A DNA stretch of 60,836 nt from a virus (taxonomy: Duplodnaviria; Caudoviricetes), in the IMG/VR virus record IMGVR_UViG_3300020005_000005, positions 1 through 60,836 of that record; one strand, 5' to 3'. The notes under the pieces were generated by a model. The model was given only the letters and a program-made list of their open reading frames with translations, ran no database searches and was not told the DNA's origin. Positions 576 to 45,605 of the stretch are shown piece after piece (position 1 is the first letter of the stretch; each line of letters starts with the position of its first letter). Position numbers and translations under genes: made by a program.

Positions 576-604
576 CAACCTTTGGTATCCTTTTTGCGTT
601 ATAA
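576..604 (+). promoter_or_regulatory. ECF-sigma-type promoter motif, copy 1
   Basis: CAAC(576-579)-N17-CGTTATAA(597-604); ATG at 610. Confidence 0.65.
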
Positions 605-609
605 GGGGT

Positions 610-1353
610 ATGGACTACAAAACAATAAAATACCCGGACGGGCAGATATCTGTAGAGATTACTGATTTCGACGGACCAATCAAAAAGAGGATTAATAGTT
701 ATGAGGATCTGATAGGGATAGTGTCTGCAGGCGAGGTGCTCCGCCACCAGGGTAAATCGTGCGATCTATTTATTCCATGCCTTTTGGGGCAGCGGAGTGA
801 TAGGCGCTTTGGTCAAGATCAATCCTTTGATCTTAAAGTGATAGCGGGGCTGATCAACTCGGGCGGTTTTGGCAATGTGTCAATACTGGATCCACACAGC
901 GATGTTGCCTTAGCCCTGATAGACAGATCAACCAAGGTATCTTCTTACCAGTATGTCGCCCAGGCGTACGCAGAGGAGGGGTCTCCTACCTTAGTGTCTC
1001 CGGACGCGGGGGCCTATAAGAAGGTTTTTGAGTACGGTCAAAAGCTGGGAGCGCCAGTAGTGGCGGCAGTCAAGCACCGTGACAAGGATGGCAAGATCGA
1101 CCTTTCTTTTATTGGGGACGTTGCAGGGCAAAAATGCCTGATAGTGGATGACCTGGCTGACGGGGGATACACCTTTGTTTTGCTTGCAGAAGCGCTTCGC
1201 AGACAGGGTGCCATCAGAGTCGCGCTCTACGTCACGCACGCCTACTTTAATAAGGGTTTTGGTTTATTAGCCCCCCTTATAGACAACATTTATTGCACCA
1301 ATTCCGTTAAAGATATCGTAGACCCACTTGTAACACAATACAATGTCATATAG
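610..1353 (+). CDS. prs: Ribose-phosphate pyrophosphokinase-like protein (probable Adps of NARP1)
   Basis: YPDGQ N-terminus, RSDRRF, LDPHS, SPDAGA and PRPP-binding loop LIVDDLADGGYT; ATG 610 preferred over GTG 502. Confidence 0.85.
   Translation: MDYKTIKYPDGQISVEITDFDGPIKKRINSYEDLIGIVSAGEVLRHQGKSCDLFIPCLLGQRSDRRFGQDQSFDLKVIAGLINSGGFGNVSILDPHSDVALALIDRSTKVSSYQYVAQAYAEEGSPTLVSPDAGAYKKVFEYGQKLGAPVVAAVKHRDKDGKIDLSFIGDVAGQKCLIVDDLADGGYTFVLLAEALRRQGAIRVALYVTHAYFNKGFGLLAPLIDNIYCTNSVKDIVDPLVTQYNVI
1284..1312 (+). promoter_or_regulatory. ECF-sigma-type promoter motif, copy 2 (inside the end of the PRS-like gene)
   Basis: CAAC(1284-1287)-N17-CGTTAAAG, about 30 nt upstream of the macrodomain ATG. Confidence 0.45.
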
Positions 1354-1822
1354 AGAAGTACAAGGAAATCTAATCACCCTTGCCCAGGAGGGGGAATTTG
1401 ACCTCATCGCACACGGCTGTAATTGCTTTTGTACCATGGGGGCGGGTCTAGCCCCCCAGATGGCAAAGGCCTTTGGATGTGACAAGTTCCCCCTGGAGCA
1501 TGTTGATTATAGAGGTGATATCAACAAATTAGGGCAGATCGACGTCGGCGGCTTCAGATATTTGGGTAATGACTTTTTTGTAGTTAACTGTTATTCACAA
1601 TATGGTTTTGGGGCAAACCACGAGGAAGGCAAAGTAGCACCACTCGACTATGAGGCCCTGATCCTATGCCTGCGCAAAATAGGTCATATTTTTAAGGGTA
1701 AACACATTGGACTGCCCCAGATAGGGTGTCACCTTGCTGGGGGGGATTGGGAGGTGGTAAAAGAGATAATTAAGAAGGAATTGTCAAAATGTGATATTAC
1801 TATTGTAATTTATAAACCATGA
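1343..1822 (+). CDS. Macrodomain protein (ADP-ribose binding/hydrolase)
   Basis: GNL, IAHGCNC, MGAGLA and LPQIGCHLAGGDW motifs typical of phage macrodomains. Confidence 0.9.
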   Translation: MSYREVQGNLITLAQEGEFDLIAHGCNCFCTMGAGLAPQMAKAFGCDKFPLEHVDYRGDINKLGQIDVGGFRYLGNDFFVVNCYSQYGFGANHEEGKVAPLDYEALILCLRKIGHIFKGKHIGLPQIGCHLAGGDWEVVKEIIKKELSKCDITIVIYKP

Positions 1823-3261
1823 GAATAAATCCTTTACTTTTAACAGACTACTACAAGACGGAGCACTACAAGATGTACCCCCTCGGTACTTCTATGATCT
1901 ATTCCAACCTGACTCCACGCAAGAGTAGGCTACCAGGGGTCGATGCTGTTGTCGTCTTTGGTGTTCAATATTTTATAAAAGAGTACCTTATTAAAAGGTT
2001 TGATGAGGACTTCTTTGATAGGTCCTGGGGGGATGTGCTGGAAGAATACCGCTTTGCTGTCAACACTGATACAGCCCACATCGAGGCACTACACCGTTTG
2101 GGGTACTTACCTATCAGGATAAAAAGTCTTGCTGAGGGGTCTTTATGCCCTATAAGGGTACCTATGTTAACTATCGTAAATACCCTTCCTGATTTCTTCT
2201 GGCTGACTAATTACTTGGAAACATTGATGAGCAATGTCTTGTGGCAACCTATTACTTCGGCCACCATTGCTTACGAGTACAAGAAATTACTAAATAGGTG
2301 GGCACGCATGACAGGGGGAGATGAAAGTTTTGTGCCCTGGCAGGGGCACGATTTTAGCTTTAGGGGTATGTCTTCTCCTGAGTCAGGCATGACATCCGCT
2401 ATGGGCCACCTCTTGTCATTCACCGGTACTGACACCATACCCGCTATATACGGCCTGCGCGATTACTATAATGGACAGGGTCTGATTGGCGCCTCTGTGC
2501 CTGCAACAGAGCACAGCGTTATGTGCATGGGTGGCGCTTACTCAGAGCAGGAGACTTTTGAAAGATTGCTCGACCTTTATCCTACCGGAATCCTTTCAGT
2601 CGTCTCAGACACGTGGGACCTGTGGCACGTCTTGGGTACTATCTTACCTAATTCAAAAGACAAAATAATGGCCCGAGACGGTAAACTGGTGATCAGGCCC
2701 GACTCAGGGGATCCTGCTGATATTCTGTGCGGACAATCAAAAGATAAATGGACAAGGAGTATTAAAGACATTCCCAAACAAAAGGGGGTTATAGAGTTGT
2801 TATGGAATATCTTCGGGGGCACTGTCAACGCCAAGGGATACAAAGTACTTGATCCGCACATTGGGGCCATCTACGGCGACTCAATTACTTTGGAGAGAGC
2901 AGAGGACATACTGTCCCGCCTGGCAGTCAAAGGCTTTGCCTCTACCAACGTGGTGTTAGGTATTGGTTCCTATACCTATCAGTATAATACGCGCGACACC
3001 CTGGGCTTCGCCGTCAAGGCGACGTACGGAGAAGTAGATGGTGTAGGCAGAGAGATCTTTAAAGACCCAGTCACTGACGACGGTACAAAGAAAAGTGCCA
3101 AGGGGCTTCTTGTCGTTCACAAGGGCGACGGCGGTTATGTGCTCAAAGATCAGCAAACAGTTGACGGAGAAAGAAGGGGAGAACTAGACACCGTCTTTGT
3201 TGATGGTATGATAATCAAAGAGGAATACTTGGATAATATAAGAACAAGATTAAATTTTTAA
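1819..3261 (+). CDS. nadV: Nicotinamide phosphoribosyltransferase-like protein (probable Namat of NARP1)
   Basis: TDYYKTEH, HDFSFRG, SVPATEHSVM, SVVSDTWD, VIRPDSGDP, IYGDSIT, KDPVTDDGTKKSAKG. Confidence 0.95.
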   Translation: MRINPLLLTDYYKTEHYKMYPLGTSMIYSNLTPRKSRLPGVDAVVVFGVQYFIKEYLIKRFDEDFFDRSWGDVLEEYRFAVNTDTAHIEALHRLGYLPIRIKSLAEGSLCPIRVPMLTIVNTLPDFFWLTNYLETLMSNVLWQPITSATIAYEYKKLLNRWARMTGGDESFVPWQGHDFSFRGMSSPESGMTSAMGHLLSFTGTDTIPAIYGLRDYYNGQGLIGASVPATEHSVMCMGGAYSEQETFERLLDLYPTGILSVVSDTWDLWHVLGTILPNSKDKIMARDGKLVIRPDSGDPADILCGQSKDKWTRSIKDIPKQKGVIELLWNIFGGTVNAKGYKVLDPHIGAIYGDSITLERAEDILSRLAVKGFASTNVVLGIGSYTYQYNTRDTLGFAVKATYGEVDGVGREIFKDPVTDDGTKKSAKGLLVVHKGDGGYVLKDQQTVDGERRGELDTVFVDGMIIKEEYLDNIRTRLNF

Positions 3262-3821: not shown

Positions 3822-3836
3822 AGGCACAATTTTTGT
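3822..3836 (+). promoter_or_regulatory. Sigma54-type -24/-12 motif
   Basis: AGGCACAATTTTTGT; GG at 3823 and G at 3835 have canonical spacing; ATG at 3849. Confidence 0.65.
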
Positions 3837-3848
3837 GGTATAAATCTT

Positions 3849-4505
3849 ATGATTAAACCAATACTAATTTGTGCCTTTTTTGTGCTTTTTGCACAGGGCA
3901 TGCCGGAAGCGGAGAATCAAACGAAGACCACCTACCTTAAAGAGGTGGAGATTGTTGGCTATCCGCTCGATGTGGAGATCTACCGGGTTCTTACTCAGGG
4001 TAAAGACTCTGTTTGGGCGCTTGATGGGTCTGACAGTCTCCTGATCGATGTACCGGCCCTAGATCCGGCCATGGCGCGACTCATCGTTGCACAAGCCCGA
4101 CACGAGACGGGTGACTTTGTCTCCCCATTATTTACTAATCACAACAATGTTTACGGAATGCAACATCCGGGACGCGGCAAACTAACCACCTCCCTAGGTC
4201 CACTTGCGACAGCAGAAGGAAGGCCCAACAAGTACGCATCCTATAGTACCGTTGAGGCATCGGTACTTGATTTAATGCTCTGGCTACAGTATCACAACAC
4301 ACCCAAGATTACCACGGCCGATGCGTATTGTAAGTATTTAAAACAACATCGTTACTTTGAAGCACCTTTAGTCGTTTACCAAAACAGTCTCAAACACTAT
4401 TTAGCATGTCCATCACCCAGTTTAAAAACCTTTATGACCAAAAACCCTTTTACACATCAATCGACAAAGTCCTTGAGACTATCAAAAACGGTGGCAAGCA
4501 ATTAG
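3849..4505 (+). CDS. GH73 glucosaminidase-family peptidoglycan hydrolase with signal peptide
   Basis: AQARHETG catalytic motif, NNVYGM, YASYSTVEASV; hydrophobic N-terminus ending AQG. Confidence 0.8.
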   Translation: MIKPILICAFFVLFAQGMPEAENQTKTTYLKEVEIVGYPLDVEIYRVLTQGKDSVWALDGSDSLLIDVPALDPAMARLIVAQARHETGDFVSPLFTNHNNVYGMQHPGRGKLTTSLGPLATAEGRPNKYASYSTVEASVLDLMLWLQYHNTPKITTADAYCKYLKQHRYFEAPLVVYQNSLKHYLACPSPSLKTFMTKNPFTHQSTKSLRLSKTVASN

Positions 4506-6118
4506 ACCTGATCAAACAAATCCGGGCGTCTAGGGACAAGGAGGAACGCAATGAGTTAAAGAAGCAACTTTCCGTTATTTGTTTTGGCGGTAAGTTTAGT
4601 GAACGCAAGGCCGCCGCTTTGGTGGAGTACTCCCGTCTGGTGGTGCTTGACTTTGATGACGCTTCTATAGTGACTAAAAGGCAAGAACTCTTGCTCCTTC
4701 CATACGTCTATGCTGTCTTTGTCTCGCCCTCCGGCGAGGGACTCAAGGCACTCATCCGGGTGAGTTCCGACAACCACTTAGGTCACTGGTCGGCCCTGCA
4801 CAAAGAGATTGATGGAGTTGATAAGAGTGGCAAGGACGTCTGTCGCGCCTGCTTCATGTCTTACGATCCCTCACTGTATGTCAATGCACACAGCGATATT
4901 TATACCAAAGTTGTCGAATCGGCTTATACTGACGAACAAAAACTAGAGAAGTTAAAAGTATGGTTAGCCAACAAGGGCGAACAGTTTAAGACGGGCAACC
5001 GCAATAATTTTTTAGCCAAGCTGGCGGGAGCCTGCAATCGCTTTGGTCTGACGGAGGCCTACGTCCTATCTGTTTTTGAAAGGGACTACGTAAAGGGATC
5101 TGACTTTAGCCTCAACGAGGCGCAGACCGTCGTTAGGTCTATCTACAAGAACTACTCGGAGTTCCACGCGACCGCCTCCTTCGACGAATCCTTTGGTGAG
5201 GCTAGGGCGGCTGAGATACTCTCCTCAGAGTTAACCACCAATGACGTCATTTATCTTAAAGACGTCGAGGCTGATCTGATCAACGATTATGAGCACGGCA
5301 CTCAAGGCGCACCCACCACCTATTTTCCTTCTATCGATCCTATCTTTAGGCCCCTACCCGGTGACCTTAATGTGTTGTCCGGCATAGGCAACCACGGTAA
5401 ATCGGCCATTAAAAAACAAATGGATCTTGTCCGCTCAGTCAAGGACGGTCACAAGCACTGTTACTTTAGCCCCGAGGAGGTCCCGCCTCTGTTCTGGTAC
5501 AGGGAACTCATTCGTTCTTATATAGGCAAACCACTGGAGCCTGGCTCGCGCGACAGGATGACAATGACCGAATATAAGCGGGGTATGGATTTTGTGAAGG
5601 AACACTTTGTTTTTGTCTACCCGCCCAGTCTACCTACACCCGATTACATACTAGAACGCTTTTCTGAGGTGATTATCAAGCACGGTATGAACTCGGTTAC
5701 ATTAGACCCATGGAACCAATTGCTTCACATCATGGACAAAAGGGACGATATCTACCTAGGAGAAGTCCTTTCCAAATTTGAGCGTTTCGCCCAGCAACAC
5801 GGAATCTATTTTACAGTGATATGCCACCCGAATAGGACGCGAAAAAAGAAGGACAAACAGGGGAATGAAGATGCTAATTATGATTGTCCGGACGTTTATG
5901 ACTTAAATGGCGGCCCTACCTGGAACGCGCGATCAACCAATATTTGTGTCTACCATCGCCCGTTTTGGGGTTCGGACAAAAACGACCCTACCGCCGAATT
6001 CCATTCAAAAAAAATTAAGAGACAAATGATTAGCGGCATTCCTGGCGCGTGTTCACTTGATTATAACCGCAAAACAGGTCGTTTTTATGATGGTGGTTAC
6101 TCTCCATTGGACAACTAA
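4406..6118 (+). CDS. Primase-helicase (BT4734/VirE-N-like primase, PriCT-like linker, SF4 helicase)
   Basis: VLDFD, FVSPSGEGLK, DKSGKDVCRACFMSYDP; GNRNNFL; Walker A SGIGNHGKS; LDPWN; ICHP. Confidence 0.85.
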   Translation: MSITQFKNLYDQKPFYTSIDKVLETIKNGGKQLDLIKQIRASRDKEERNELKKQLSVICFGGKFSERKAAALVEYSRLVVLDFDDASIVTKRQELLLLPYVYAVFVSPSGEGLKALIRVSSDNHLGHWSALHKEIDGVDKSGKDVCRACFMSYDPSLYVNAHSDIYTKVVESAYTDEQKLEKLKVWLANKGEQFKTGNRNNFLAKLAGACNRFGLTEAYVLSVFERDYVKGSDFSLNEAQTVVRSIYKNYSEFHATASFDESFGEARAAEILSSELTTNDVIYLKDVEADLINDYEHGTQGAPTTYFPSIDPIFRPLPGDLNVLSGIGNHGKSAIKKQMDLVRSVKDGHKHCYFSPEEVPPLFWYRELIRSYIGKPLEPGSRDRMTMTEYKRGMDFVKEHFVFVYPPSLPTPDYILERFSEVIIKHGMNSVTLDPWNQLLHIMDKRDDIYLGEVLSKFERFAQQHGIYFTVICHPNRTRKKKDKQGNEDANYDCPDVYDLNGGPTWNARSTNICVYHRPFWGSDKNDPTAEFHSKKIKRQMISGIPGACSLDYNRKTGRFYDGGYSPLDN

Positions 6119-6139
6119 ATTTAAAATCTTACGTTAATA
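6112..6139 (+). promoter_or_regulatory. ECF-sigma-type promoter motif, copy 3
   Basis: CAAC(6112-6115)-N16-CGTTAATA(6132-6139) at the head of a small-gene cluster. Confidence 0.6.
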
Positions 6140-6193
6140 AGTCTATAGTCCCTTAACCTGACCCCCTCTTGAACCCTATAAAATGGAGATACG

Positions 6194-8458: not shown

Positions 8459-8808
8459 TCAAATATAAAACATCAACTGGAGAGGTGGTCTCTCAGGCAA
8501 CAATCAACAAAGAGCGGGCGGAGGCGTACATCAAGTACGATTTGGGTGTACGGGTTTGCGCGGGATGTGGCGGCCAGGCGCAGGGTCGGGCACACATTAT
8601 CGCTCAAGCGCGATGTAAGAGTATCCACAAAACAGACTATATCTGGCAACCATGGAACTGGTTCATTGCTTGTCATCGTTGTAATCAAAATTGGGAGGGA
8701 TTTAAGGGAGATGCGTGTAAGAAACTACTGAATTATGAAGAGTGTCTGCAGGTTCTGAAAGAGCATGATTATTATACTTTTCTGAAATATACTCATCTCC
8801 CGGCATGA
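8455..8808 (+). CDS. HNH-like zinc-binding nuclease
   Basis: CAGC...AHII...NWFIACHRCN. Confidence 0.65.
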   Translation: MIKYKTSTGEVVSQATINKERAEAYIKYDLGVRVCAGCGGQAQGRAHIIAQARCKSIHKTDYIWQPWNWFIACHRCNQNWEGFKGDACKKLLNYEECLQVLKEHDYYTFLKYTHLPA

Positions 8809-8816
8809 TTTTTGCT
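8801..8816 (+). promoter_or_regulatory. Sigma54-type -24/-12 motif
   Basis: CGGCATGATTTTTGCT with canonical GG-N10-GC; ATG at 8828. Confidence 0.7.
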
Positions 8817-8827
8817 ACATATAACAC

Positions 8828-9484
8828 ATGGCTCTTCCTGTTATCTATATAATAATTTCTCCAACTAACCGTATTTATGTCGGTCAGACTCGTGATTTTG
8901 AAAAACGAATAAGTTATTATAAAAGATCTAAATGTAAGGGACAAACACTATTGCACGCGTCTTTGAGAAAATACGGCTGGGAACAGCACACGTGTGAGGT
9001 AGTTGTCAAAACCAGGGCAGAAATTCCTCAATGGGAACTAACTCTTTTAGAGCAAACAATCATGGATCATTACCGCTCGGAGGGTTATGAATTGATGAAT
9101 CTAAAGGAGGCCGGTTCTTGGGGTAAACACTCGGAAGAAACAAAATTAAAAATGAGCGTTTCTCGCAAGGGTACCTGCCTCGGAACAGATCATCATAATT
9201 TTGGTAAACACCCGTCCAGAGAAACTCTTTTAAAAATGAGCCTCATAATGAGAGGTAAGCACAAAGGATCAAAAAGTCCGTCAGCCGTGCCTGTGTGGCA
9301 ATGTGAAAAAGACGGCACAAAAATAAAAAGATGGGAAGCGATGGCAGAGGCAGCAGAAGGCTTAAATATTAAATACACAAACATATCCAGATGTTGTAGG
9401 GGAACCAGACTTACTGCGTACGGATTTGTGTGGAAATATACAGAACCAAAATTACCCATAGTAGCGAAACACACTACTAGGTAA
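8828..9484 (+). mobile_element. Free-standing GIY-YIG homing endonuclease (NUMOD3 + NUMOD1-like)
   Basis: VIYIIISP...IYVGQT; GKHSEETKLKMS; ISRCCRG...TAYGFVWKY. Confidence 0.85.
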
Positions 9485-9490: not shown

Positions 9491-9505
9491 TGGCACGATT
9501 TTTGA
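9491..9505 (+). promoter_or_regulatory. Sigma54-type -24/-12 motif
   Basis: TGGCACGATTTTTGA, intergenic. Confidence 0.75.
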
Positions 9506-9534
9506 TCTAATTAATTGTTAAAAATAACACTTTT

Positions 9535-9669
9535 ATGGCAAAAACAAATTCAAAAAAGAAACCAAAAAAACTCTACAAAGGAGTAGCCTGTGTCGTTCCT
9601 GGAAAAATATATGGAGGCGGTGTAGGTGTGCCGGAAAAGAATATTGACCTAGAAGGTAACCTGATTTAA
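9535..9669 (+). CDS. Small basic protein (44 aa, absent from the ORF track)
   Basis: MAKTNSKKKPKKLYKG...DLEGNLI; downstream of a promoter motif and abutting the next ATG. Confidence 0.55.
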   Translation: MAKTNSKKKPKKLYKGVACVVPGKIYGGGVGVPEKNIDLEGNLI

Positions 9670-9670: not shown

Positions 9671-10015
9671 ATGTGCGTAGTTTCAAATACAGGGGACTAC
9701 TGGGGGCAGAGATTACATCCTTGGTCACCTTATACACCACCACTTCCTTACATTCCACCCGCTCAGATGCCCGATATAACCAAAATCGTCATTAATCCTA
9801 CCGGGCCTACCAAGGATGACTTTGACAATTTAAAAAAAGAGGTACAGATCATGAAGGAGCAATTGGCCCGTGCCAAGGAGTACGACAAAGCCAACGGAGA
9901 ACCAGACTGTGAGATAGAAGACAAAATGGCATTTTTAAGAGAAGTGGCCAAATTGGTTGGTATTGACTTGGATGAAGTACTTAAGAAAGACTCCGCAAAC
10001 GCCTCCTTATCCTAG
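9671..10015 (+). CDS. Hypothetical phage protein
   Basis: MCVVS...KEYDKANGEPDCE; Pro-rich linker plus coiled coil. Confidence 0.7.
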   Translation: MCVVSNTGDYWGQRLHPWSPYTPPLPYIPPAQMPDITKIVINPTGPTKDDFDNLKKEVQIMKEQLARAKEYDKANGEPDCEIEDKMAFLREVAKLVGIDLDEVLKKDSANASLS

Positions 10016-10024: not shown

Positions 10025-10039
10025 TGGCACGGTTTTTGA
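10025..10039 (+). promoter_or_regulatory. Sigma54-type -24/-12 motif upstream of the tRNA
   Basis: TGGCACGGTTTTTGA; predicted +1 near 10051, adjacent to the tRNA 5' end. Confidence 0.75.
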
Positions 10040-10051
10040 TCATATAATAAC

Positions 10052-10129
10052 CGCGCGGTAAGGAAGTGGTCTATCCGCCCAGGCTCATAACCTCGGAATC
10101 GTTGGTTCGAATCCAACCCGACGCAACCA
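10052..10129 (+). tRNA. tRNA-Met(CAT), initiator-like, with structural irregularities
   Basis: Anticodon loop CTCATAA (CAT 10086-10088), T arm GTTGG-TTCGAAT-CCAAC, encoded CCA, C1:A72 mismatch. Confidence 0.85.
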
Positions 10130-10142
10130 GACATTTAAAAAA

Positions 10143-10672
10143 GGCACGGCAGAACAAGATCTCACAACTTAATCCTCGGATTGATCTCAACGCACTGCCG
10201 TGCTGGCTTCCCACGAGAAGCCAAGATTGATTTCGAGGATTATTTTTTGCCCTTTGGATAGGGAAGGATCTCTCCTGTACTGTTACCAGAAACAGCCTCT
10301 AAACCCTGGCACAACCCGATACAAGGGCGCCGTGTCGTCCGCGTACAACAAACCGTACGCCGACCACGTTAAAGAGTTTAATTGAGGAAATGGGCCTTCT
10401 ACTACTTGCTACCCGCCTCGGCCCATACGGTACACCTCACGATAAGATAAAGGGTACTCAAGATAGCAATCCTCTATAGGGGGTAGGGGGTTGCTACTTG
10501 CTTATCCACGGCGCCCGTAGCCCCTCGCTTCGCTTCGTGGCGACGTGTAGAGCACCGCGGGGACGTGATCAGCCCCCGTTTCCTTCTCTAAGAGATAGAG
10601 CCACACGGTGACAAGCAAACAGGTATTCCCCTCAAAAAATAGGGGAAGGGGAAATGAAGGGGGCACGTCCCG
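10143..10672 (+). ncRNA. Candidate large structured non-coding RNA
   Basis: No credible ORF; more than ten complementary segments including 8-10 bp perfect long-range helices and a pseudoknot (see findings). Confidence 0.55.
10346..10374 (+). promoter_or_regulatory. ECF-sigma-type motif, copy 4 (inside the structured region)
   Basis: CAAC(10346-10349)-N17-CGTTAAAG. Confidence 0.35.
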
Positions 10673-10740
10673 ACAGGATGCTTGATTTTAATAAAAAAAC
10701 GGTCGCGGAGGTCCGCCATTTTCAAACTAAAGTCTTAGTT

Positions 10741-10875
10741 ATGAGCAACCTTCATCTCGACAGGCCGGATTTAATGCTTACTTATCTAGTTGCTTCCGTC
10801 CTCGGATCTATAAGCATGCACTACGTAGCAATGCGGTTTTTCGAGAAAAAGGGCACTAATCGTGTAGTATCATAG
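10741..10875 (+). CDS. Small membrane protein or gene remnant
   Basis: LMLTYLVASVLGSISMHYVAMRFFEKK hydrophobic helix; start uncertain. Confidence 0.35.
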   Translation: MSNLHLDRPDLMLTYLVASVLGSISMHYVAMRFFEKKGTNRVVS

Positions 10876-10882
10876 GTCCGCA

Positions 10883-10910
10883 CAACCTTTATAGCCCAAA
10901 TACGTTAAAT
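10883..10910 (+). promoter_or_regulatory. ECF-sigma-type promoter motif, copy 5
   Basis: CAAC(10883-10886)-N16-CGTTAAAT, intergenic, upstream of ATG 10936. Confidence 0.65.
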
Positions 10911-10935
10911 AGGATAGGGTCAAAACAACAAAAAT

Positions 10936-11205: not shown

Positions 11206-11388
11206 GTGGAAAGAGGATCTGTTATTGACAACCAGGAGCAAAAAATCGATGGAAGGATCAAGGTGTGGGTAACAGTCAAGAAAAAGGACGGGACAAAAGA
11301 GCGCCTTTTTTATTATTGGGACGAGGCCAGTAAGCAGCAGAAATACTACGATAACCTGTATAAAAATCACCCCCCGTGCCCACTATGA
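11206..11388 (+). CDS. Hypothetical protein
   Basis: 60-aa ORF abutting both neighbours. Confidence 0.5.
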   Translation: MERGSVIDNQEQKIDGRIKVWVTVKKKDGTKERLFYYWDEASKQQKYYDNLYKNHPPCPL

Positions 11389-12215
11389 AATATTATGTCT
11401 ATCGTCATATTCGCCCAGACAAGAACGAGCCCCTTTACATAGGCTTGGCTAAGAAAGCGAAGAAGTTTAATACTATTAAAAACGAATACGCACGAGCCTA
11501 CGCTCACAGCAAAGATCATAGAACTGAATTTTGGCATAACATATTTAACCTGTGTAATAAGAAAATTGAAGTTGACATTCTTTATGAATCCGATGATTGG
11601 AAAGAAATCAATGAAAAGGAAATAGAGTTTATAAAACTCTACGGGCGTGCTGATTTGGGTCTGGGCCCCCTAGTAAATTTCACCAACGGCGGCGAGGGTA
11701 ATCATGGAACAATAGTCACGGAGGAAACAAGACGCAAAAGAAGCGAGTCCATGAAGGGTAAAAATACCGGCCCAATAACGGAGGAGCATAGACAAAACTT
11801 AATCAAGTCCCATCTAGGATATAGCCCCACGGAGGAACATCGTAAGAATTTAAGTATAGCGGGTAAAAAACGCTATGAAGATCCAGTAGCGCGTCTTGTA
11901 ATGAGTCAACGAATGATTGGTCGCGTGTTTACCGAAGAATGGAAACAAAACGGTAGTAAGGCTAGGCTAAAATTTATGGCGGAAAATCCTGGCCATTGGG
12001 AAAGCATAAGATTAATCAATGATAGGGCTGTTGTTAAATTAACACTGGCTGGTGAATTTGTTCAAGAATATAAATCACTACGTGAAGCCGCCAAAGAAAA
12101 CGGAATGAAAAGCAGTTCTGGAATTGGTGCGGTTGTAAGAAAAGTAGGCAATAACAAAACGGCGTACGGATTTAGGTGGGCATTTAAAGAGAACTTTGTT
12201 CTATGCCCCAATTGA
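11385..12215 (+). mobile_element. Free-standing GIY-YIG homing endonuclease (second subfamily; NUMOD3 repeats + NUMOD1-like)
   Basis: YYVYRHIRPDKNEPLYIG; LVNFTNGGEG; TEETRRKRSESMKG and TEEHR repeats; TAYGFRW. Confidence 0.85.
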
Positions 12216-14809: not shown

Positions 14810-15248
14810 CCCAAGTTTTATGTTGATCGAAGAAATTGTTGAAATTTTGAGTGACGCCGGTAAGGTAGGCGTATATGCTGCCGAGGTCATGGAGGATAGC
14901 AAAAACAAAGATGAGACATATGCGCTGGCATGGTTCCTGTATAATTCGCGCCAATTTAAGGACAGTTTGGTTCAGGTTGCTTTTGTACTGGGCGGCAAAG
15001 ATGGCCGCCCAGTATCGGAGTTTTATACAGCCGCACCGGCCCTGACTGATCAGTACTTCACCCTGCACGATCTGCAAGAAAGACACTCGACCCTCCGCGA
15101 CAAGGTTCTGCGCATGCGCTTGGCCTATGAGGACTTCATTAACGAGAACGTGGCCGTCAGGATCCTCTTCAAAGTGGTGGACTCTCAGATGCAACTCATG
15201 ACGTGGGCACTTGGACAAGCCGTAAATGCAATACCCGATGCTAAATAA
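14796..15248 (+). CDS. Hypothetical protein
   Basis: 150-aa helical ORF. Confidence 0.6.
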   Translation: MESGNPSFMLIEEIVEILSDAGKVGVYAAEVMEDSKNKDETYALAWFLYNSRQFKDSLVQVAFVLGGKDGRPVSEFYTAAPALTDQYFTLHDLQERHSTLRDKVLRMRLAYEDFINENVAVRILFKVVDSQMQLMTWALGQAVNAIPDAK

Positions 15249-15612
15249 GCCTAAGTTCCTCAAAATCGTCATTTTGGCACTATTTTTGCTACTTGTAGTA
15301 GGAGGAATCAGTGGATGGATATACCACAGCCGGACTCAAAAACAATTACAGAATGAAAATCAATACCAACAATTACGGTCTCGCCAGCGCGAACTGGAAT
15401 ATGACAAAAGGCTCCAAGCCTCTGAGTTGGAGAGAAAAAGCGTACAGCGTCATTTGGATTCTCTTGCTTTTGCTTTTGATCATCTTGATAGGATACATGC
15501 AGCAGACTCTGCCGAGTTGGTCAAAATAAAAGGTAGGTTTAGTAAGTTAACTGGCACTGAACTCAGCAAGAAAATGATTGAGGAGTACAACAAAAGTTTA
15601 CAGCATGACTAA
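15238..15612 (+). CDS. Membrane-anchored coiled-coil protein (i-spanin-like)
   Basis: N-terminal transmembrane segment followed by a coiled coil. Confidence 0.5.
   Translation: MLNKPKFLKIVILALFLLLVVGGISGWIYHSRTQKQLQNENQYQQLRSRQRELEYDKRLQASELERKSVQRHLDSLAFAFDHLDRIHAADSAELVKIKGRFSKLTGTELSKKMIEEYNKSLQHD
15275..15290 (+). promoter_or_regulatory. Intragenic sigma54-type motif
   Basis: TGGCACTATTTTTGCT, canonical GG-N10-GC, but inside a CDS. Confidence 0.4.
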
Positions 15613-22039: not shown

Positions 22040-22054
22040 TGGCACGATTTTTGT
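22040..22054 (+). promoter_or_regulatory. Sigma54-type -24/-12 motif
   Basis: TGGCACGATTTTTGT, intergenic. Confidence 0.75.
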
Positions 22055-24162: not shown

Positions 24163-24166
24163 AAAT

Positions 24167-24781: not shown

Positions 24782-26675
24782 GGAAGAAGATCGTCCTGGA
24801 ATAATTCCTTTAAATGAGTATAAAGAAGATCTCGAACTTGAGGTACAGTACCACGTCGCTCGAATAATGGCAGGGAATCCATTTAAAGTAAACAAGAAAT
24901 ATAAACGTATCGAAATACCCGACTTCAAACCAAATGAAACACGAGAGCGCTTGGACTGGGAAATGTCTCAAGTGGACAAGTGTATTCATGGTTTTGATGG
25001 ACTCCCCGGCAGATACTACTTCTTTCTAAACTTCTGCAAAATAAAACACAAGAAGCGTGGTAAAATTTCTCCCGATTTCAGAGCATGGCAATTAAATTTT
25101 GCCAATGTGAAAGAAAAGATTTCAAAAACACCCGGCAGAGGATTGGTATCTATTAAACGTCGTCAGGTTGGTGCTTCTTGGGATTTCTCAGCAGATAATA
25201 TTTATGACTGCACTTTCAATAAGCATTTTGATATAGGGATGAATTCAAAGGGGGAAGTAGACTCCAGATCCTTATTTATCAAACATAAATATATTCATCG
25301 CAATCTGCCGCCGTTTCTGCGGGCAAGCATTTCCATAGATCGCCGCGACGCGATGATCTTTGGTAAATGGGATAAAAAAATACAAAAGTGGAAAGGCAAT
25401 GAGTCATCTATTATTTCGGTAGCACCTACGCTTACATCTCACGCTGGAAATCAATATCGAAAATTAGTAATAGACGAGGCTGGTGAAATTGATAATTTAA
25501 TGGGTATTTGGTCAAATTGCGAGGATTGTATTATCCAAGACTCTGAGCGCGTGGGCATACCATACATATTTGGGACCATGGGCGACACAGCTAAAAACGG
25601 AAAAGGTCTGATGGAGTTTTATCTAAAGAACGAACTTTACGGGCTTGATCGCTTTCCTATTTTTGGATATAATGGTTTGCTTGTAGACGATTTAGGCAAT
25701 GATATGATCGAGGATGCGGTGCGCTACATTCTATATGAGAGAAGGAGGAAGGAGGGTGGTTCTGATATCGTCTACAGAAAATACTTACAAAAATTTCCAC
25801 TCACCGAACAGGACGCGTTCATAACCATTAGTGGTTCCGGGGTTGGTAATCCTCAACTAATACAGAAGCGCTATACGCAGTTAATGGAAAATCCAGTCCA
25901 GCAAGTCAAGGGATGGATGAGACCTAAAGTTGGAGGGGGATCTGATTTTGTTCCAGATCCATTAGGTAAGATTATTGTGTATGAAAGACCATTGCAAGTA
26001 ACTAATGGCTACGTGGCATCAACAGATCCGGCTGAGGATGATGATGTTCTTAAAAATCGCGATACCTCCAATTTATCAACAGCAATAGTTGCGCGTCCTT
26101 TAGGGTTACAACCGCCGCGGTTAGTACTTGAATATACAGATAGACCAAATAAACTTGCGGATTATTATCAGCAAGTAGCCCTTGCTTTAGAGTGGTACAA
26201 TCATACGCAAGTACTAATCGAAATGAATAAAGGCGGCTGGAGAATGAATGATTGGTTTGAGTTGTACTTCCCTAAATTAATATGTTGGTCGCCAAAGTCA
26301 GGTAATTCTGTTCGCGGCGGCTTTGCAATGACGAAGGGTATTAAGATGAGTCCCGATAGAAAGATGCAAATGATGGGGTTGCTTGATTCTAATGTAGAAA
26401 ACTACTGGGAATCATTGCCGTCACTTAGGTTACTAGACGAATTTAAAGTATTTGGGGCCGATCACGCGGATGATGATCTCGCGGCTGCGTATGGGTGGTG
26501 TCTTGTTCAATTACAAAGTGATAAACGTGTAGCGCAGGCACTCAATGCAGATGAAGCCAACAAACCAAAAGCCTTTTATAAAAAGGAAGGGCTCACCATA
26601 AAATTATATTCTGATATTAACAAGCCGGTAGGTCCGGTGATACGTCGTACTAGAAATCCACTTTTCAACAGATAA
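24774..26675 (+). CDS. terL: Terminase large subunit
   Basis: Walker A-like KRRQVGAS, Walker B LVIDEAG, nuclease motif ASTDP, IEMN; lies before the portal. Confidence 0.9.
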   Translation: MSKEEDRPGIIPLNEYKEDLELEVQYHVARIMAGNPFKVNKKYKRIEIPDFKPNETRERLDWEMSQVDKCIHGFDGLPGRYYFFLNFCKIKHKKRGKISPDFRAWQLNFANVKEKISKTPGRGLVSIKRRQVGASWDFSADNIYDCTFNKHFDIGMNSKGEVDSRSLFIKHKYIHRNLPPFLRASISIDRRDAMIFGKWDKKIQKWKGNESSIISVAPTLTSHAGNQYRKLVIDEAGEIDNLMGIWSNCEDCIIQDSERVGIPYIFGTMGDTAKNGKGLMEFYLKNELYGLDRFPIFGYNGLLVDDLGNDMIEDAVRYILYERRRKEGGSDIVYRKYLQKFPLTEQDAFITISGSGVGNPQLIQKRYTQLMENPVQQVKGWMRPKVGGGSDFVPDPLGKIIVYERPLQVTNGYVASTDPAEDDDVLKNRDTSNLSTAIVARPLGLQPPRLVLEYTDRPNKLADYYQQVALALEWYNHTQVLIEMNKGGWRMNDWFELYFPKLICWSPKSGNSVRGGFAMTKGIKMSPDRKMQMMGLLDSNVENYWESLPSLRLLDEFKVFGADHADDDLAAAYGWCLVQLQSDKRVAQALNADEANKPKAFYKKEGLTIKLYSDINKPVGPVIRRTRNPLFNR

Positions 26676-26678
26676 ATT

Positions 26679-28841: not shown

Positions 28842-28882
28842 TGGCACGGTTTTTGTTACTATAAGCATGGCACGCTATTTGT
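28842..28882 (+). promoter_or_regulatory. Tandem sigma54-type motifs ahead of the capsid operon
   Basis: TGGCACGGTTTTTGT (28842-28856) and TGGCACGCTATTTGT (28868-28882). Confidence 0.75.
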
Positions 28883-28919
28883 TAGCTGCCAGATTTTAAT
28901 AACCTAAACCCACTTTAGC

Positions 28920-30128
28920 ATGCCAGGAGGATCCGATATTGATCGTGATATTAACAAGGACTTAGCCGACTTCGGCAAAAAACTTAAAGAACAAGCGCTC
29001 GCCAAGGGTATTCAAACACCTCCGGCGGACCAAAATACTCAGGTTGCTAATGTGCAACCTACACAAATATCAACACAGGCCGCCCAAATAGCGGCTATCG
29101 TTGAACCAACACCTCCGGCACCTGCCGCTGCTACTCCCACCCAGCCGTCTGTGACGCCTGTAAAGGATGAGCCTACAGGACCGGACTCTACCTCGACGGA
29201 TCCTCCTTTGGATACCGAAGAACCAGTACCAGCCTGGGACAAAGACCTGGAAACACCACCAGTCAAGGACGAACCTTTGACATTCGAAAGTTTAGGCAGT
29301 GCCTTAAAACTGGAGAAAACGCCAAAGTCCACCGCCGAACTGGTAGAACAATTTACAGCACAGCAACTCAAGATTAAGGCATTGGAGGCCTCCCAGGAGC
29401 AATCCTTGGATGACATCGATCCTGAACTCAAGGAAGTAGTGCAATTTGCCAAGAATAAAGGGAATTGGAAACAGTTCCTCTCCACCAAGGTAGTCAATTT
29501 CAACAATGCCGATCCAGTAAGTCTGTTCAATCAATCGGTTGAACAGCAATTTAAAAAGCCGGACGGGTCCATCGATTTTGACGCCGCCGACGCAGAACTT
29601 GCTCAGATTCCCGATGCGGTAAAACGCGCTCAGGGTAACATAATGAAGCAAAATCTGATCGCCCAGCAGGAGAACAGACGGGCGCAAATCTTGCAGGAGG
29701 CTGAACGCAGGCAGACGGATTTTAACCGTAACCTAGCAGAGGCCGCGAAGAAATTGCCTGAATATCTAACCAAAGACAAGGTAGGAATTCAGGTAGAACC
29801 CAAACACGCCGATTTCCTCTATGAGGGAATAAGAAATGGAAAGTTAGTTGAGAAACACCTCGGAAAAGTTGATATCAGTGGTATCGCTCCCGAAAAGTTA
29901 ATCAGAACACTAGCCATGGCAGAATGGGGAGAACGCATCAGCAAGACGCAATTCGACCAAGGCGTTGTTCAAGGCAAAAAGCAACTCTTAAAGAGTACGC
30001 AAAACGTGCAACTCAACACGCCGGCCATTCCGCCGGCACCAAACGTGGCTGACCCAAATAAGGTAGAAACACCGGCTGAGAAAATGGCCAAGGTGATGAG
30101 CCGAAACAAGCAGCCCGGATCACTTTAA
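28920..30128 (+). CDS. Scaffold-like capsid assembly protein
   Basis: Pro/Thr-rich acidic N-terminus and helical C-terminus; between portal and MCP. Confidence 0.65.
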   Translation: MPGGSDIDRDINKDLADFGKKLKEQALAKGIQTPPADQNTQVANVQPTQISTQAAQIAAIVEPTPPAPAAATPTQPSVTPVKDEPTGPDSTSTDPPLDTEEPVPAWDKDLETPPVKDEPLTFESLGSALKLEKTPKSTAELVEQFTAQQLKIKALEASQEQSLDDIDPELKEVVQFAKNKGNWKQFLSTKVVNFNNADPVSLFNQSVEQQFKKPDGSIDFDAADAELAQIPDAVKRAQGNIMKQNLIAQQENRRAQILQEAERRQTDFNRNLAEAAKKLPEYLTKDKVGIQVEPKHADFLYEGIRNGKLVEKHLGKVDISGIAPEKLIRTLAMAEWGERISKTQFDQGVVQGKKQLLKSTQNVQLNTPAIPPAPNVADPNKVETPAEKMAKVMSRNKQPGSL

Positions 30129-32548: not shown

Positions 32549-32644
32549 ATGAGCAGAGAATCCATATACAGGCTTCTGTCTTTTCTTATTTTTATCTTAT
32601 TCATAGCTACGCTGCTTATTCTTAAAGTTTTAATTTATGGATAG
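32549..32644 (+). CDS. 31-aa single-TM peptide (possible holin or regulator)
   Basis: MSRESIYRLLSFLIFILFIATLLILKVLIYG, overlapping the CHAP start. Confidence 0.4.
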   Translation: MSRESIYRLLSFLIFILFIATLLILKVLIYG

Positions 32645-33125
32645 GGACAAAATAATTAAGGTGGCTGCGTCTCAAAATGGGTATAAAGAAGATCCACCCA
32701 ATTCCAATCTCACCAAATATAACCTTTGGTATTATGGTAAAAACACAGCAGCACCGTGGTGCGCAACTTCAGCGAGTTGGGTTTTTAACGAAGCTGGTTA
32801 TCCTCTACCAAAAATTCAAGATGGTGTAAGCGGAGCCGCTTACGTTCCGTACATCTACAGTTTCTATAAAAAGTGGAGTACGCCGGCAAAATCTAAATTC
32901 ACCATTACTCCACAAAAGGCTGATCTTGTTTTGTACGATTGGAATGGAGACAAGGTAGGTGATCACATTGGTATCTTTGTTGGCTGGGTAGTACAAGGTA
33001 AATCTTCCTATGCTTGGGAAGGGAACACAAGCCCAACTAGCGATTCAAATGGTGGAGAGTACATGCTTAGACTTCGATACATTTCACAAGTTCTGTGTTT
33101 TATTGATGCAGAATTAGCAATCTAA
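32637..33125 (+). CDS. CHAP-domain peptidoglycan hydrolase (endolysin)
   Basis: PWCA (Cys), DHIGIF (His), EGNT. Confidence 0.85.
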   Translation: MDRDKIIKVAASQNGYKEDPPNSNLTKYNLWYYGKNTAAPWCATSASWVFNEAGYPLPKIQDGVSGAAYVPYIYSFYKKWSTPAKSKFTITPQKADLVLYDWNGDKVGDHIGIFVGWVVQGKSSYAWEGNTSPTSDSNGGEYMLRLRYISQVLCFIDAELAI

Positions 33126-33137: not shown

Positions 33138-33836
33138 ATGGCATTAGACGTGAGTTTGTCGTTCGAGTCAATTACTGCCGATAGGCTGACTGGAACTTTA
33201 CTGGATAATACAGTGTATGGCACCGGAGGTAATCCCGCACGAGCCGCCGTTGGCGTATGGATGACTGGGACAAAAAGAAAATTTGATGACACCGTTGATT
33301 CGACTTTAACGGTCAGCGGAAATTCAAATAGTCCAAGTACGGATGTTTCATGGACCTTCAACATACCTAAAGACGGATGGTTCCGCTTCTTGTTTGTAAT
33401 CATTCCTGATTACGCCGGAGGCACAACTTATGCGTTATATGATGCCGTTCGAAATTCTTCAACCAACGTAGTCTATCGTTCTAAACAAGCGGGCAATGTA
33501 GGGCACGCGTTGACAGATACCGCCTGGTGGGAAGTTATAGCCGATCCTTCTTCTCTAGCTTCTAATGAGGGAGAGCCCAATGAGTCAGCCAATATTGCAT
33601 CCGACGTGTATGAGATAGTACCAACTCCTTCGGGGGAGTTAGCGTTTGCCAGTGCTATAGCTATTGCTTCAACCGAGGGTGGAGATGCCGATAGAGAGCA
33701 AAGTGTTCAACTTTATGAATTACTTGCTGTTCTTATAGATGGCGCATACATTCGTTCAGATAGATCGTCTTTTAGTCAGGCTGAAAGAATATGTAGAAGA
33801 ATAGAAACTATTTATACAGAAAATGGATTGATATGA
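33138..33836 (+). CDS. Virion structural protein
   Basis: 232 aa, beta-rich, at the head of the fibre cluster. Confidence 0.55.
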   Translation: MALDVSLSFESITADRLTGTLLDNTVYGTGGNPARAAVGVWMTGTKRKFDDTVDSTLTVSGNSNSPSTDVSWTFNIPKDGWFRFLFVIIPDYAGGTTYALYDAVRNSSTNVVYRSKQAGNVGHALTDTAWWEVIADPSSLASNEGEPNESANIASDVYEIVPTPSGELAFASAIAIASTEGGDADREQSVQLYELLAVLIDGAYIRSDRSSFSQAERICRRIETIYTENGLI

Positions 33837-34660
33837 GTATAGGAATTTATACTATTATTTCTCCAACCAGCAAGGTCTACGTAGGACAAAGTTGGGATAT
33901 ATCAAGACGCTGGAGGTCTTATAATAGACTGAGTTGCTCTGATCAACCTGCTATTTATAATTCTCTCAAGAAGCATGGTCCAGAGGCACATGATTTTGAA
34001 ACTATTTTAGACTTCACACAAGACGTCACCCAAGCAGAACTAGACTGGTGGGAACAAATTATGATGGATTATCATCGTGAAAAGGGAGACGAATTACTTT
34101 TTATAAGAGACGCCGGCTCTAATGGTAAACAAGCAGAAGAAACTAAAAGGAAACTAAGTGAATCTAAAAAAGATAAAAAAAGAAAACCATTTACGGCAGA
34201 ACATCAACAAAAATTAAAAGATCGCTGGACATACCAACCTCATCCCTGGGAAGGTAGAAATCATTCGGGCGAATCTCGACAAAAAATGAGTAATTCTCAT
34301 AAAGGAAAAAATACAGGAAATAAAAATCCTATGTTTGGTAAAACTCATTCCGAACTAGCAAAATTAAAAATTAGCAAAGCGTGGAAAGGCAAAAAACATC
34401 GTCCTGAGTCTATTTTAAAAATACAAAAAGCTACTGCGGGCGAAAATAATCCGATGTATAGTAAGTTCGGAATAGAGCACGGTGCCTCCAAGACAGTTGT
34501 TCAATTAACCAAAGAAGGAAAATTTGTTAAAAACTGGGATTGTATATCGGATGCCGGTAGATTTTTGCAGATGAAAAGTACATCTAACATAAGTGGGTGT
34601 TGCAGAGGCAAGCGTAAAACCGCGGCAGGATTTAAATGGAAATACAATGTCAGTAAGTAG
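33833..34660 (+). mobile_element. Free-standing GIY-YIG homing endonuclease with multiple NUMOD3 motifs
   Basis: GIYTIISP..KVYVGQS; HSGESRQKMS, NPMFGKTHS; CCRGKRKTAAGFKWKY. Confidence 0.88.
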
Positions 34661-43971: not shown

Positions 43972-43980
43972 ACATAAAAT

Positions 43981-45588
43981 ATGTTTCCTTATACATACGG
44001 CAAAGCAAGAATAGGCGGAGATTCAGCAGTCCTCGGTGTTAATTTTTTAACCAATTCTAATCTCGGTTTAATAAATGGTTCTGGTGGAGTGGCCGGCCTT
44101 GCCCCAAAGTTAGATAACACTTATCAGAGTTTTGCTGGAGGTGTTTTAAGAAAGACTGATAAAGGATTGATCGTTGAAGACACCCGCCAAAACTTCATAG
44201 CCGCTTCTTCGGATTTTATAAACGCGGCATGGGCCGCTGGTTCATTTACAGGAATTGTATCTAAACTTAGTGTTATACCGTCAGTAACTGGCGCGTCCGA
44301 GTTTGAATCCAACACTAATCAAGGATTAATTAATCAAAATAACAGAGGAACATTCTCAGCGGGGGTAGAAACGCTTTGGTGCTTGGTGGAGGCCACGCCA
44401 TCGGCCACAGATTTTGGGATGGCGATGGGTGACTCTACATCCGGGAACGTCGAGGTTATTGGGATGTATTTCAACTTTGTCACCAAAGTGATCACACAAA
44501 GAGGAAACGCCAATACTCGCATCTTTGGATATATAGATTTTGGTCCTGCAAGTGGCCCTAATGGTGGAAATTTATTTTTACTTATCACTTCGGGAACACC
44601 CGCCGCCGGCACAGTAGGTCACACGCGCAGAATGTTTTTATATCCTAACGGGTCAACAGCCGGAACCGCAGGCAGAAAGACTACTTTACATCATCTTCAA
44701 TATGAACCTGGCGCTTTTGCAACTTCGCCCATTGTAAATGCAAGTACAACTAGCAATACACGCGCGGCAGAGTCAATAACAGTATCAGTAGCTACAGGAA
44801 CCTACGATGTAAGGTTTACTACGCAGGACGGAACAATAAACGATAAATATGCGGTAGCCAGTTCCTCTAATTTATTGACCATTCCGTTAGACATAACACA
44901 GAACGTATCAATTCAAATAGGTGACGTATTTTTACAGCGCTTACAGAGGAATGGATCAATATCCAATATATCCATTTGGAACCAAAAAGTTAATAATATT
45001 CATGGTCTCGGCGATAGTTACTTGGTTCTCGGGGCATCTGGCGGACAGAATGTAATCCAGTGGTTACCACCAAAATTGTACAGGCCTAGAGTATGGACTT
45101 TTGATGGAGTTGGTGCCACCTCTCTTACTCAGCAGGCGGTTAGGTTTGATGCTACGCCATCATTTTACGGGGACCTTCTTGTAATAGTAGATGGTGTTAT
45201 TGACGGACTAACTACTAATAACGACTTCGCACTCATAGTCCAACCGGCAATCGAAAGCATGCTTGCTCATTTAACTACCTCTCCAAAGCAATGGATTTAT
45301 GTACAACCAAACCCAGATGTAAATGCTGGCACTGTAGGAAGCGTTTATTATACTAGATGGCTCCTGATTCAGTCCCAAATAAAGGCGGCGTATCCAAATA
45401 ATTATGTTGAAACTTTACCTCAAATGCAAGCATTCAATAATGGATCAGCCAATGATCTTGCAGATATAGCCGCCGGCGAATGGCCCAGATCTTTGAGAAT
45501 AGACGCCGCTAATGTTCATCCTAATGAGTTAGGGTCGATGTATCTGGCTCAAATAATAGACAACGCGATTCAGGCCCGTGGCTACTGA
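43981..45588 (+). CDS. Virion fibre/spike with C-terminal SGNH hydrolase domain
   Basis: GLIVEDTRQN and QYEPGAFATSPI...TRAAE fibre motifs; GLGDSY and VHPNELG SGNH motifs. Confidence 0.75.
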   Translation: MFPYTYGKARIGGDSAVLGVNFLTNSNLGLINGSGGVAGLAPKLDNTYQSFAGGVLRKTDKGLIVEDTRQNFIAASSDFINAAWAAGSFTGIVSKLSVIPSVTGASEFESNTNQGLINQNNRGTFSAGVETLWCLVEATPSATDFGMAMGDSTSGNVEVIGMYFNFVTKVITQRGNANTRIFGYIDFGPASGPNGGNLFLLITSGTPAAGTVGHTRRMFLYPNGSTAGTAGRKTTLHHLQYEPGAFATSPIVNASTTSNTRAAESITVSVATGTYDVRFTTQDGTINDKYAVASSSNLLTIPLDITQNVSIQIGDVFLQRLQRNGSISNISIWNQKVNNIHGLGDSYLVLGASGGQNVIQWLPPKLYRPRVWTFDGVGATSLTQQAVRFDATPSFYGDLLVIVDGVIDGLTTNNDFALIVQPAIESMLAHLTTSPKQWIYVQPNPDVNAGTVGSVYYTRWLLIQSQIKAAYPNNYVETLPQMQAFNNGSANDLADIAAGEWPRSLRIDAANVHPNELGSMYLAQIIDNAIQARGY

Positions 45589-45590
45589 TT

Positions 45591-45605
45591 TGGCACGATT
45601 TTTGT
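45591..45605 (+). promoter_or_regulatory. Sigma54-type -24/-12 motif
   Basis: TGGCACGATTTTTGT, intergenic. Confidence 0.75.

Follow-up and report, generated by a model that had tools for sequence, protein, structure and literature searches.

A recurring sigma54-type candidate promoter in the genome of a distantly crAss-like phage

Introduction

Phages are known to direct transcription through promoters of the primary-sigma type, through sigma factors of their own or through their own RNA polymerases. Sigma54 promoters are the classic example of bacterial transcription that stays tightly locked until an activator acts: the sigma54 holoenzyme requires an enhancer-binding ATPase, the C of the -12 element is nearly invariant, and transcription begins 11-13 nucleotides (nt) 3' of that element. 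Here, we analyze a recurring motif resembling these promoters in the IMG/VR record IMGVR_UViG_3300020005_000005, a linear sequence of 60,836 bases from a distantly crAss-like phage; the entire record was analyzed and is called the window below.

Two phage systems offer the nearest comparisons. Late transcription of phage T4, which employs gp55, gp33 and the sliding clamp, is reportedly often likened to enhancer-dependent sigma54 initiation. The window motif would share with it the character of a phage promoter class that works without a -35 element and with an additional activation step; T4, however, relies on a sigma-like protein of its own and on a TATAAATA box, whereas searches of the window and of its relative, contig G001, yielded neither a gp55-like nor a sigma70-family gene. 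In the crAss-like Cellulophaga phage phi14:2, Drobysheva et al. report that a packaged polymerase, gp66, transcribes the early genes and the host polymerase the middle and late genes, the middle promoters being of the primary-sigma type and transcribed by the Escherichia coli sigma70 holoenzyme (10.1101/2020.03.07.982082). Both crAss-like genomes would carry host-polymerase promoters, and in similar places (portal, pre-capsid gene, tRNA genes), but a homologue of the early polymerase gp66 was not found in the window. The phi14:2 promoters also differ in sequence, reading TTG...TAnnTTTGTA 5' of g070, g075, g108 and g110, and 100,000 of the 100,418 bases of that genome, when scanned, held no sigma54-consensus site at ≥10/12.

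Motif Architecture and Placement in the Window

At nine places between 583 and 45606, the window repeats an intergenic, strand-specific motif made up of TGGCACGRTTTTTG and a following A/T-rich stretch that resembles TATAAT. All genes of the window lie on the plus strand, the minus strand being gene-free. Exact TGGCACGRTTTTTG occurs in five copies, every one on the plus strand and intergenic (9491, 10025, 22040, 28842 and 45591), with no copy on the minus strand and none for the backwards control. For scoring, we used TGGCACG-N4-TTGCW (12 scored positions), a consensus attributed to Barrios et al. (1999) and taken from the literature, not derived from the window. At ≥11/12, six matches were found on the plus strand and none on the minus strand, while 200 Markov shuffles averaged 0.19 such matches, with at most 2; at ≥10/12, the counts were 12 and 1, with a shuffle mean of 2.4. 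The sigma54-type sites that had been noticed in a sequence-only reading of this DNA are therefore real and aptly named. PMC12316311 gives the sigma54 consensus in a slightly different form, TGGCACN5-7TTGCT.

Across the nine sites, the invariant columns are G2, G3, A5, T9, T11-T13 and G14, so that the sigma54 hallmark of GG and TTG at fixed spacing (GG, 8 bases, TTG) is present in 9/9. The TATAAT-like stretch starts three or four bases 3' of the motif. Bacterial sigma54 promoters are matched in the exact GG/TTG spacing, the full TGGCACG -24 box, the T-tract before the -12 element and the A/T-rich sequence downstream. From each of the nine intergenic sites, the next start lies 27-78 nt away on the coding strand.

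The strong sites head two small open reading frames (ORFs), a tRNA-like gene, a 93-amino-acid (aa) ORF, a pre-capsid gene and the tail/muzzle block. TGGCACGATTTTTGAT (9491-9506, plus strand, 11/12) precedes the small ORFs 9535-9669 and 9671-10015, and TGGCACGGTTTTTGAT (10025-10040, plus strand, 11/12), followed by TATAAT, precedes the tRNA-like gene. TGGCACGATTTTTGTG (22040-22055, plus strand, 10/12), followed by CTATAAT, heads either a short ORF or the 93-aa ORF at 22125-22406. The tandem sites TGGCACGGTTTTTGTT and TGGCACGCTATTTGTT (28842-28883, plus strand, 11/12 each) lie between the portal gene and a 402-aa gene (28920-30128, plus strand) located directly 5' of the capsid gene, while TGGCACGATTTTTGTA (45591-45606, plus strand, 11/12) heads the block 45647-53526, which encodes ring protein 2 and the muzzle.

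Three weaker copies, all on the plus strand, head nicotinamide adenine dinucleotide (NAD)-salvage genes, a glucosaminidase-domain gene and a GIY-YIG nuclease gene. They are TGGTATCCTTTTTGCG (583-598, 8/12, then TTATAAG), upstream of the phosphoribosyl pyrophosphate (PRPP) synthetase ATG at 610; AGGCACAATTTTTGTG (3822-3837, 8/12, then GTATAAA), upstream of the ATG at 3849; and CGGCATGATTTTTGCT (8801-8816, 10/12), upstream of the GIY-YIG homing endonuclease ATG at 8828. In each of the three, the ATG stands exactly 27 nt from the motif start. One further plus-strand match, TGGCACTATTTTTGCT (15275-15290, 11/12), falls among the hydrophobic membrane-helix codons of ORF 15226-15612 and is doubtful as a promoter.

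Conservation of the Motif in Related Phages

The motif recurs in relatives of the phage. In the 73.5-kb contig G001, whose portal and muzzle proteins are 37% and 32% identical to those of the window and whose virion module is syntenic, the plus strand carries four 12/12 sites and one 11/12 site, reading TGGCACGGTTTTTGCT. Two of the G001 sites are syntenic with window sites: 64204, before the pre-capsid gene, corresponds to the pair at 28842, and 5164, before the ring/muzzle block, corresponds to 45591. The -12 C is present in 5/7 G001 sites. The GG...TTG core is kept in G001 and the TATAAT-like tail is not, which identifies the -24/-12 core as the constrained part. A divergent pair of sites, 52892 on the minus and 53164 on the plus strand, heads both gene blocks of G001, and most sites are oriented along the direction of their block; an extra 12/12 site on the minus strand (31145) lies within a small ORF. 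Among closer relatives, G010 has one site and L177 has a site at 1134 that is syntenic with window site 45591.

This placement bears on whether the motif acts as a promoter at all. As a non-promoter cis element, it could be a binding site for a replication or packaging protein or an RNA signal, and site 22040 can indeed form a weak hairpin. Such a role is nonetheless very unlikely, given the coding-strand position shortly upstream of a start in 9/9 window sites, the agreement of most G001 sites with block direction, the divergent arrangement of the block-head pair, and the sequence itself, which is the same as that of host-type promoters.

The Motif in Bacterial Chromosomes and Unrelated Phages

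A scan of one genome per prokaryote species for the motif followed by TATAA yielded at least 119 loci, which belong to sigma54-bearing groups. Among the matches listed, position 15 carried C in 80, T in 26, A in 10 and G in 3. Twenty loci labelled Bacteroides, Bacteroidaceae or Bacteroidales were picked, 19 of which had a downstream ORF; Pfam analysis of ten of these downstream genes identified four MacB/FtsX permeases, four outer-membrane efflux proteins (OEP/TolC-type), one SecA and one MoxR-type ATPase. Sequences identical to the window motif thus precede Bacteroidales MacB/FtsX and TolC-type genes, another point of likeness to bacterial sigma54 promoters. PMC12316311 counts COG0577 permeases among those proteins of Bacteroidia that are predicted to be sigma54 targets. 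Both forms of the motif were counted in four Bacteroidales genomes: TGGCACG-N4-TTGT was found 35 times and its backwards control 5 times, the corresponding TTGC form 25 times and its control 7 times; the four had been chosen for already holding one motif match, a slight bias to be set against these counts. T at -12 is ordinary in these genomes.

The motif 14-mer was also found in nine further viral records, and four of the five contigs searched for a portal showed no portal match to the window. The 217-kb viral contig G003 contains 66 sites at ≥11/12. Its 42 plus-strand sites are packed into 30-58 kb at intervals of roughly 0.2-1 kb, and their tail TATAGTATAGTGTAACCAA is conserved; the 24 minus-strand sites lie within 68-183 kb and are mostly of the TTTTTGTA type. 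G003 encodes two sigma70-family proteins and a ClpB-like ATPase. When the window and G001 were compared with G003 and a further contig, G002 (tblastn, E ≤ 1e-4), the matches comprised three NAD-salvage enzymes and one 177-aa ORF, with no candidate regulator common to both pairs, which favours a host factor.

A phage-borne reader of the motif was considered as a rival. The promoter could be recognised by a novel sigma factor, RNA polymerase or sigma54 substitute, encoded by the phage or delivered with the virion, its likeness to sigma54 promoters then being mimicry or convergence. Sixty-six sites in one contig are typical of phage-specific promoters, sigma70-family proteins are encoded by G003 and by contig G005, and G001 has sites at the head of both gene blocks; yet the motif equals host-type chromosomal promoters before efflux genes, reaches the 12/12 sigma54 consensus in G001 and is not accompanied by a regulator shared between the two pairs of genomes. 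The families PF04542 and PF04552 are absent from the window and G001, and no RNA polymerase was found there, although many window ORFs belong to no recognised family, the window leaves out about 14 kb of the genome, and neither an activator nor an upstream activator site was detected. On balance, a phage factor seems unlikely, at perhaps one chance in a handful.

Search for Other Promoter Classes

The sequence-only reading had proposed a two-step programme, in which an extracytoplasmic function (ECF) sigma factor would act first on metabolic and nuclease genes and sigma54 then on lysis, tRNA and virion genes. The ECF half of this scheme did not hold up. GGAAC-N15-18-CGT has 10 matches in the window, 4 on the plus and 6 on the minus strand (expected 4.9 ± 2.2), and AAC-N16/17-CGT has 24 and 25 (24.1 ± 5.2 in shuffles). 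Four AAC-N16/17-CGT matches lie upstream of starts (577, 1285, 10884 and 13809), where shuffles gave 1.9 on average and 5 at most, while no match to the GGAAC or GAAC pattern lies ≤60 nt upstream of a start anywhere in the window. All five ECF promoter patterns tried were at chance level in the window. When 6- to 8-mers were tested for enrichment across 75 upstream regions, no second motif emerged, the clear outliers being pieces of TGGCACGATTTTTG. An ECF class was accordingly rejected, its matches being as frequent on the gene-free strand as on the coding strand. A CCCCC-rich motif, RACCCCCTCY, was likewise dropped (18 matches against 11.6 ± 3.3 expected, with 5/100 shuffles equalling 18).

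With ECF matches at chance and no ECF gene (PF04542, 0 matches), nothing supports two steps or a switch of sigma factors. The interval proposed for the cascade ends with the last sigma54-type site (45604-45606) and begins in keeping with an AAC-N17-CGT match at 577. This minimal match (577-599) speaks for a cascade, as does the rough split of weak copies to the left, among metabolic and nuclease genes, and strong copies to the right, among virion genes; the match, however, overlaps the weak sigma54-type copy at 583, which shows the same 27-nt ATG spacing as 3822 and 8801. We consider a cascade extremely improbable. What remains of the proposed partition by function is weak: strong sites do head tRNA-like and virion genes, but weak copies of the same motif head the metabolic, nuclease and glucosaminidase genes. 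As judged from these patterns, the sites form a single putative promoter class in strong and weak copies, rather than two classes, with no cascade.

The link between sigma54 and lysis is weak because the clear endolysin gene (32637-33125) has no site; the supposed lysis gene was probably the glucosaminidase-domain gene at 3849-4505. The tRNA gene placed under a sigma54-type site is partly borne out by a tRNA-like gene 3' of site 10025 (10053-10125, plus strand; Rfam RF00005, 37.9 bits; anticodon CAU), but its acceptor stem is imperfect, with one gap, and ARAGORN found no tRNA in the window.

The TATAAT-like box 3' of most window sites raises the question of an unusual primary-sigma (sigma70/sigmaA-type) promoter, with this box as the -10 and the T-tract or TTGGCA as an upstream element. 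The middle promoters of phi14:2 set a precedent, and in the plus-strand cluster of G003 a TTGGCA-N16-TATAGT reading is possible. At the window sites, however, TTGGCA and TATAAT are separated by 12-13 nt instead of 16-18, so that sigma70 geometry fails, and G001 preserves the GG...TTG core but not the box. Sigma70-type scans of the window were at chance (35 against 34.4 ± 7.1 and 28 against 30.8 ± 5.0), and the phi14:2-type middle promoter (TTG at about -33, TAnnTTTG at about -7) is absent at the sigma54-type sites. The Bacteroidetes -7 pattern TANNTTTG gave 67 matches against 50.8 ± 7.7 expected, but with 27/67 on the plus strand, none of them in the first 9 kb, and without enrichment upstream of window genes. 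A primary-sigma reading is hence improbable.

Virion RNA Polymerase

The affiliation of the phage with crAss-like phages, also put forward in the sequence-only reading, is well supported. The window encodes a crAss muzzle protein (49462-53526, plus strand; PF25731, 135.8 bits) and crAss tail ring protein 2 (47356-48093, plus strand; PF25702, CrAss_Ring_2, 42.6 bits). Identity of the portal and large terminase to Crassvirales is just 21-24%; by these comparisons, the phage is crAss-like, but distantly so.

The final, open ORF of the window (56889-60836, plus strand) is the 5' part of the gene for a coiled-coil-rich, virion-type protein of 1594 aa, residues 1-1315 of which it encodes with 100% identity to the full-length protein on a 75,092-base contig. 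Given this contig and the sizes of relatives (G001, 73.5 kb; L180, 77 kb), the phage genome is estimated at about 75 kb, of which the window represents about 81%. About 14 kb thus lies outside it, and the negative results for polymerase and activator genes given here cover the remainder. The CheckV completeness of 44% is probably an underestimate.

In phi14:2 and crAss001, the polymerase gene is located 3' of the muzzle gene, with few genes between. At this position, the window has the 1594-aa protein, which neither motifs nor searches mark as an RNA polymerase: it lacks DFDxD and does not match gp66. Its counterpart in G001 has 1719 aa and no DxDxD, and is followed by a 203-aa ORF and then a convergent replication block; the ESM Atlas returned for it only weak leads to "large polyvalent protein" domains. 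D[FYW]DxD is absent from all G001 frames; the window matches it once, as DYDPD, in an unrelated setting. The N-terminus of the muzzle has a conserved DLDND, which we weighed as a polymerase motif but discarded, its context being unlike RNA polymerase and the motif being absent from the phi14:2 muzzle.

Residues 604-2180 of phi14:2 gp66 used as a query had no match in the window or G001 at E ≤ 1, whereas the same query matched the positive control G012 (E 1.9e-15), an 85-kb crAss-like contig with a portal 21% identical to that of the window. In G012, the gp66 homologue (about 27.5-31 kb) lies in an open frame of 6563 aa, compared with 2180 aa for gp66, a length that points to several virion cargo proteins having been fused. 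G001 begins and ends within tail-fibre-like ORFs that match the window gene order, so little of its genome is missing.

The lineage is therefore probably without a recognisable crAss-type virion polymerase, as far as homology and motif searches can tell. That no such gene was found in the window and the near-complete G001 fits reliance on the host polymerase, the part of the earlier proposal that is supported; of the sigma switching attached to it, there is no sign.

Sigma Factors, Activators and the Reading of the Promoter

PF04542 (sigma70/ECF family) had no match in the window or G001, whereas the same search matched 10/14 control genomes; PF04552 was also absent from both. With the motif equal to host-type sigma54 promoters and kept in relatives, we assign a probability of roughly 0.55 to the reading that sigma54 holoenzyme recognises the window sites. 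The promoter would be an RpoN-type -24/-12 element composed of TGGCACG, four bases, TTG, a C, T or A, and an A/T-rich, TATAAT-like melting region, and would be bound by host core RNA polymerase carrying host sigma54. Under normal sigma54 geometry, transcription would begin about 26 nt from the motif start. As the ATG of the weak-site genes stands at 27 nt, these three genes would be nearly leaderless, and only about 2 nt of transcript would precede the tRNA-like gene.

Several observations weigh against recognition by sigma54. The base after TTG, at the -12 C position, is C in 2, T in 5 and A in 2 of the nine window sites, a departure from bacterial sigma54 promoters, although the ordinary occurrence of T in the four Bacteroidales genomes weakens this objection. 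In the window and G001, the enhancer-binding ATPase family PF00158 has no match; GAFTGA occurs in no frame, and the sole Walker A motif of the window belongs to the primase-helicase. Upstream of the sites, no 8-mer is common to more than three of the regions, as an upstream activator site might be. These searches cover phage sequences; the activator may be a host protein. Among more distant relatives, G011 has only degenerate copies and L180 has no site at ≥10/12 over 24 kb. Unlike in bacteria, the motif would be the main recurring promoter of a lytic-type phage, serving even tRNA and virion genes, and the 66 sites of G003, together with the G001 sites heading both blocks, are hard to square with classical enhancer-dependent control.

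Two ATPase findings touch on the activator question. PF00158 matches in G003 and G005 were rejected as enhancer-binding proteins, being ClpB-like chaperones instead. In G001, a MoxR-like ATPase gene adjoins a gene for a VWA/metallopeptidase protein, which is a lead only.

More tentatively, and with odds clearly below even, we propose that a soil lineage of about 75 kb with a crAss-type virion lost its virion RNA polymerase and runs its programme, including both block-head promoters, through host sigma54 without a recognisable enhancer-binding protein or activator site, and that the capture of sigma54 is a general, undescribed phage strategy. If so, the closed complex would be opened by a novel route, e.g., a virion-delivered or otherwise novel phage activator, or activator-independent -12 variants, and unrelated phages such as the 217-kb contig would use the same promoter type. 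The literature covered, with subscription journals mostly outside its scope, held no report of a recurring sigma54-type phage promoter or of Crassvirales without the polymerase. Confirmation would establish a new route of host takeover and a crAss-like lineage dispensing with the virion polymerase that all members of the group are said to have, with the source of the ATPase step as the biochemical question. The motif would then also serve as a practical marker of operon starts in uncultured phages of this kind.

Gene Content and Further Observations

Megablast of 22 kb of the window and tblastn of its last ORF gave no match among phage records; single-protein scans of viral contigs (portal and last ORF) and a metagenome scan with the last ORF recovered no relatives, which were found instead by alignment-based scans. 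Sequence searches of the PDB with the two largest ORFs returned nothing meaningful.

The left 24 kb of the window begins with the NAD-salvage cluster (610-3261, plus strand), comprising PRPP synthetase, a phosphatase (phrog_335) and nicotinamide phosphoribosyltransferase, and resembling the NAD-reconstitution pathways by which phages counter host defence. Homologues of these enzymes also occur in the unrelated jumbo contig G003. The glucosaminidase-domain protein (3849-4505, plus strand) was matched by PF01832 (34.2 bits) and by a phrog endolysin (2.9e-6). This part also encodes a primase-helicase, exonucleases, glycosyltransferases and a protein with a C39-like, papain-type peptidase domain (23647-24162), the last directly 5' of the terminase gene. 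From 24.7 kb on, the window encodes the large terminase and portal (24774-28838, plus strand), virion proteins, the endolysin, tail fibres, ring protein 2 and the muzzle; a 233-aa ORF (48097-48798, plus strand) follows ring protein 2. Five GIY-YIG homing endonuclease genes of phrog_314 (8828-9484, 11376-12215, 24137-24781, 33833-34660 and 48752-49471) are dispersed over the early and virion regions alike. In G001, a DnaB-like helicase (26613-28631, minus strand) and the large terminase (54267-57152, plus strand) each contain an intein (Hint and LAGLIDADG).

The left end of the window (1-520) has 500 nt of non-coding sequence with runs of G and C (e.g., GGGGGGGAGGGGAACCCCC) and repeated TTGCAAC, and may represent a terminus of the genome, an origin or a region of early control. 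Downstream of the tRNA-like gene, about 800 nt (10126-10935) is without an ORF of ≥80 aa, is G+C-rich and contains a 14-pair hairpin (10464-10496). Rfam gave no match in this region besides the tRNA. The stretch may encode a non-coding RNA comparable to the long, abundant transcripts reported from intergenic regions of phi14:2. By eye, tRNA-like sequences were also seen in L168 (G011) at about 6060-6150, 5' of the portal gene and with a CAU anticodon loop, and in L180 at about 630-710, 5' of the pre-capsid gene, so that a tRNA gene in the virion module may be conserved across the lineage.

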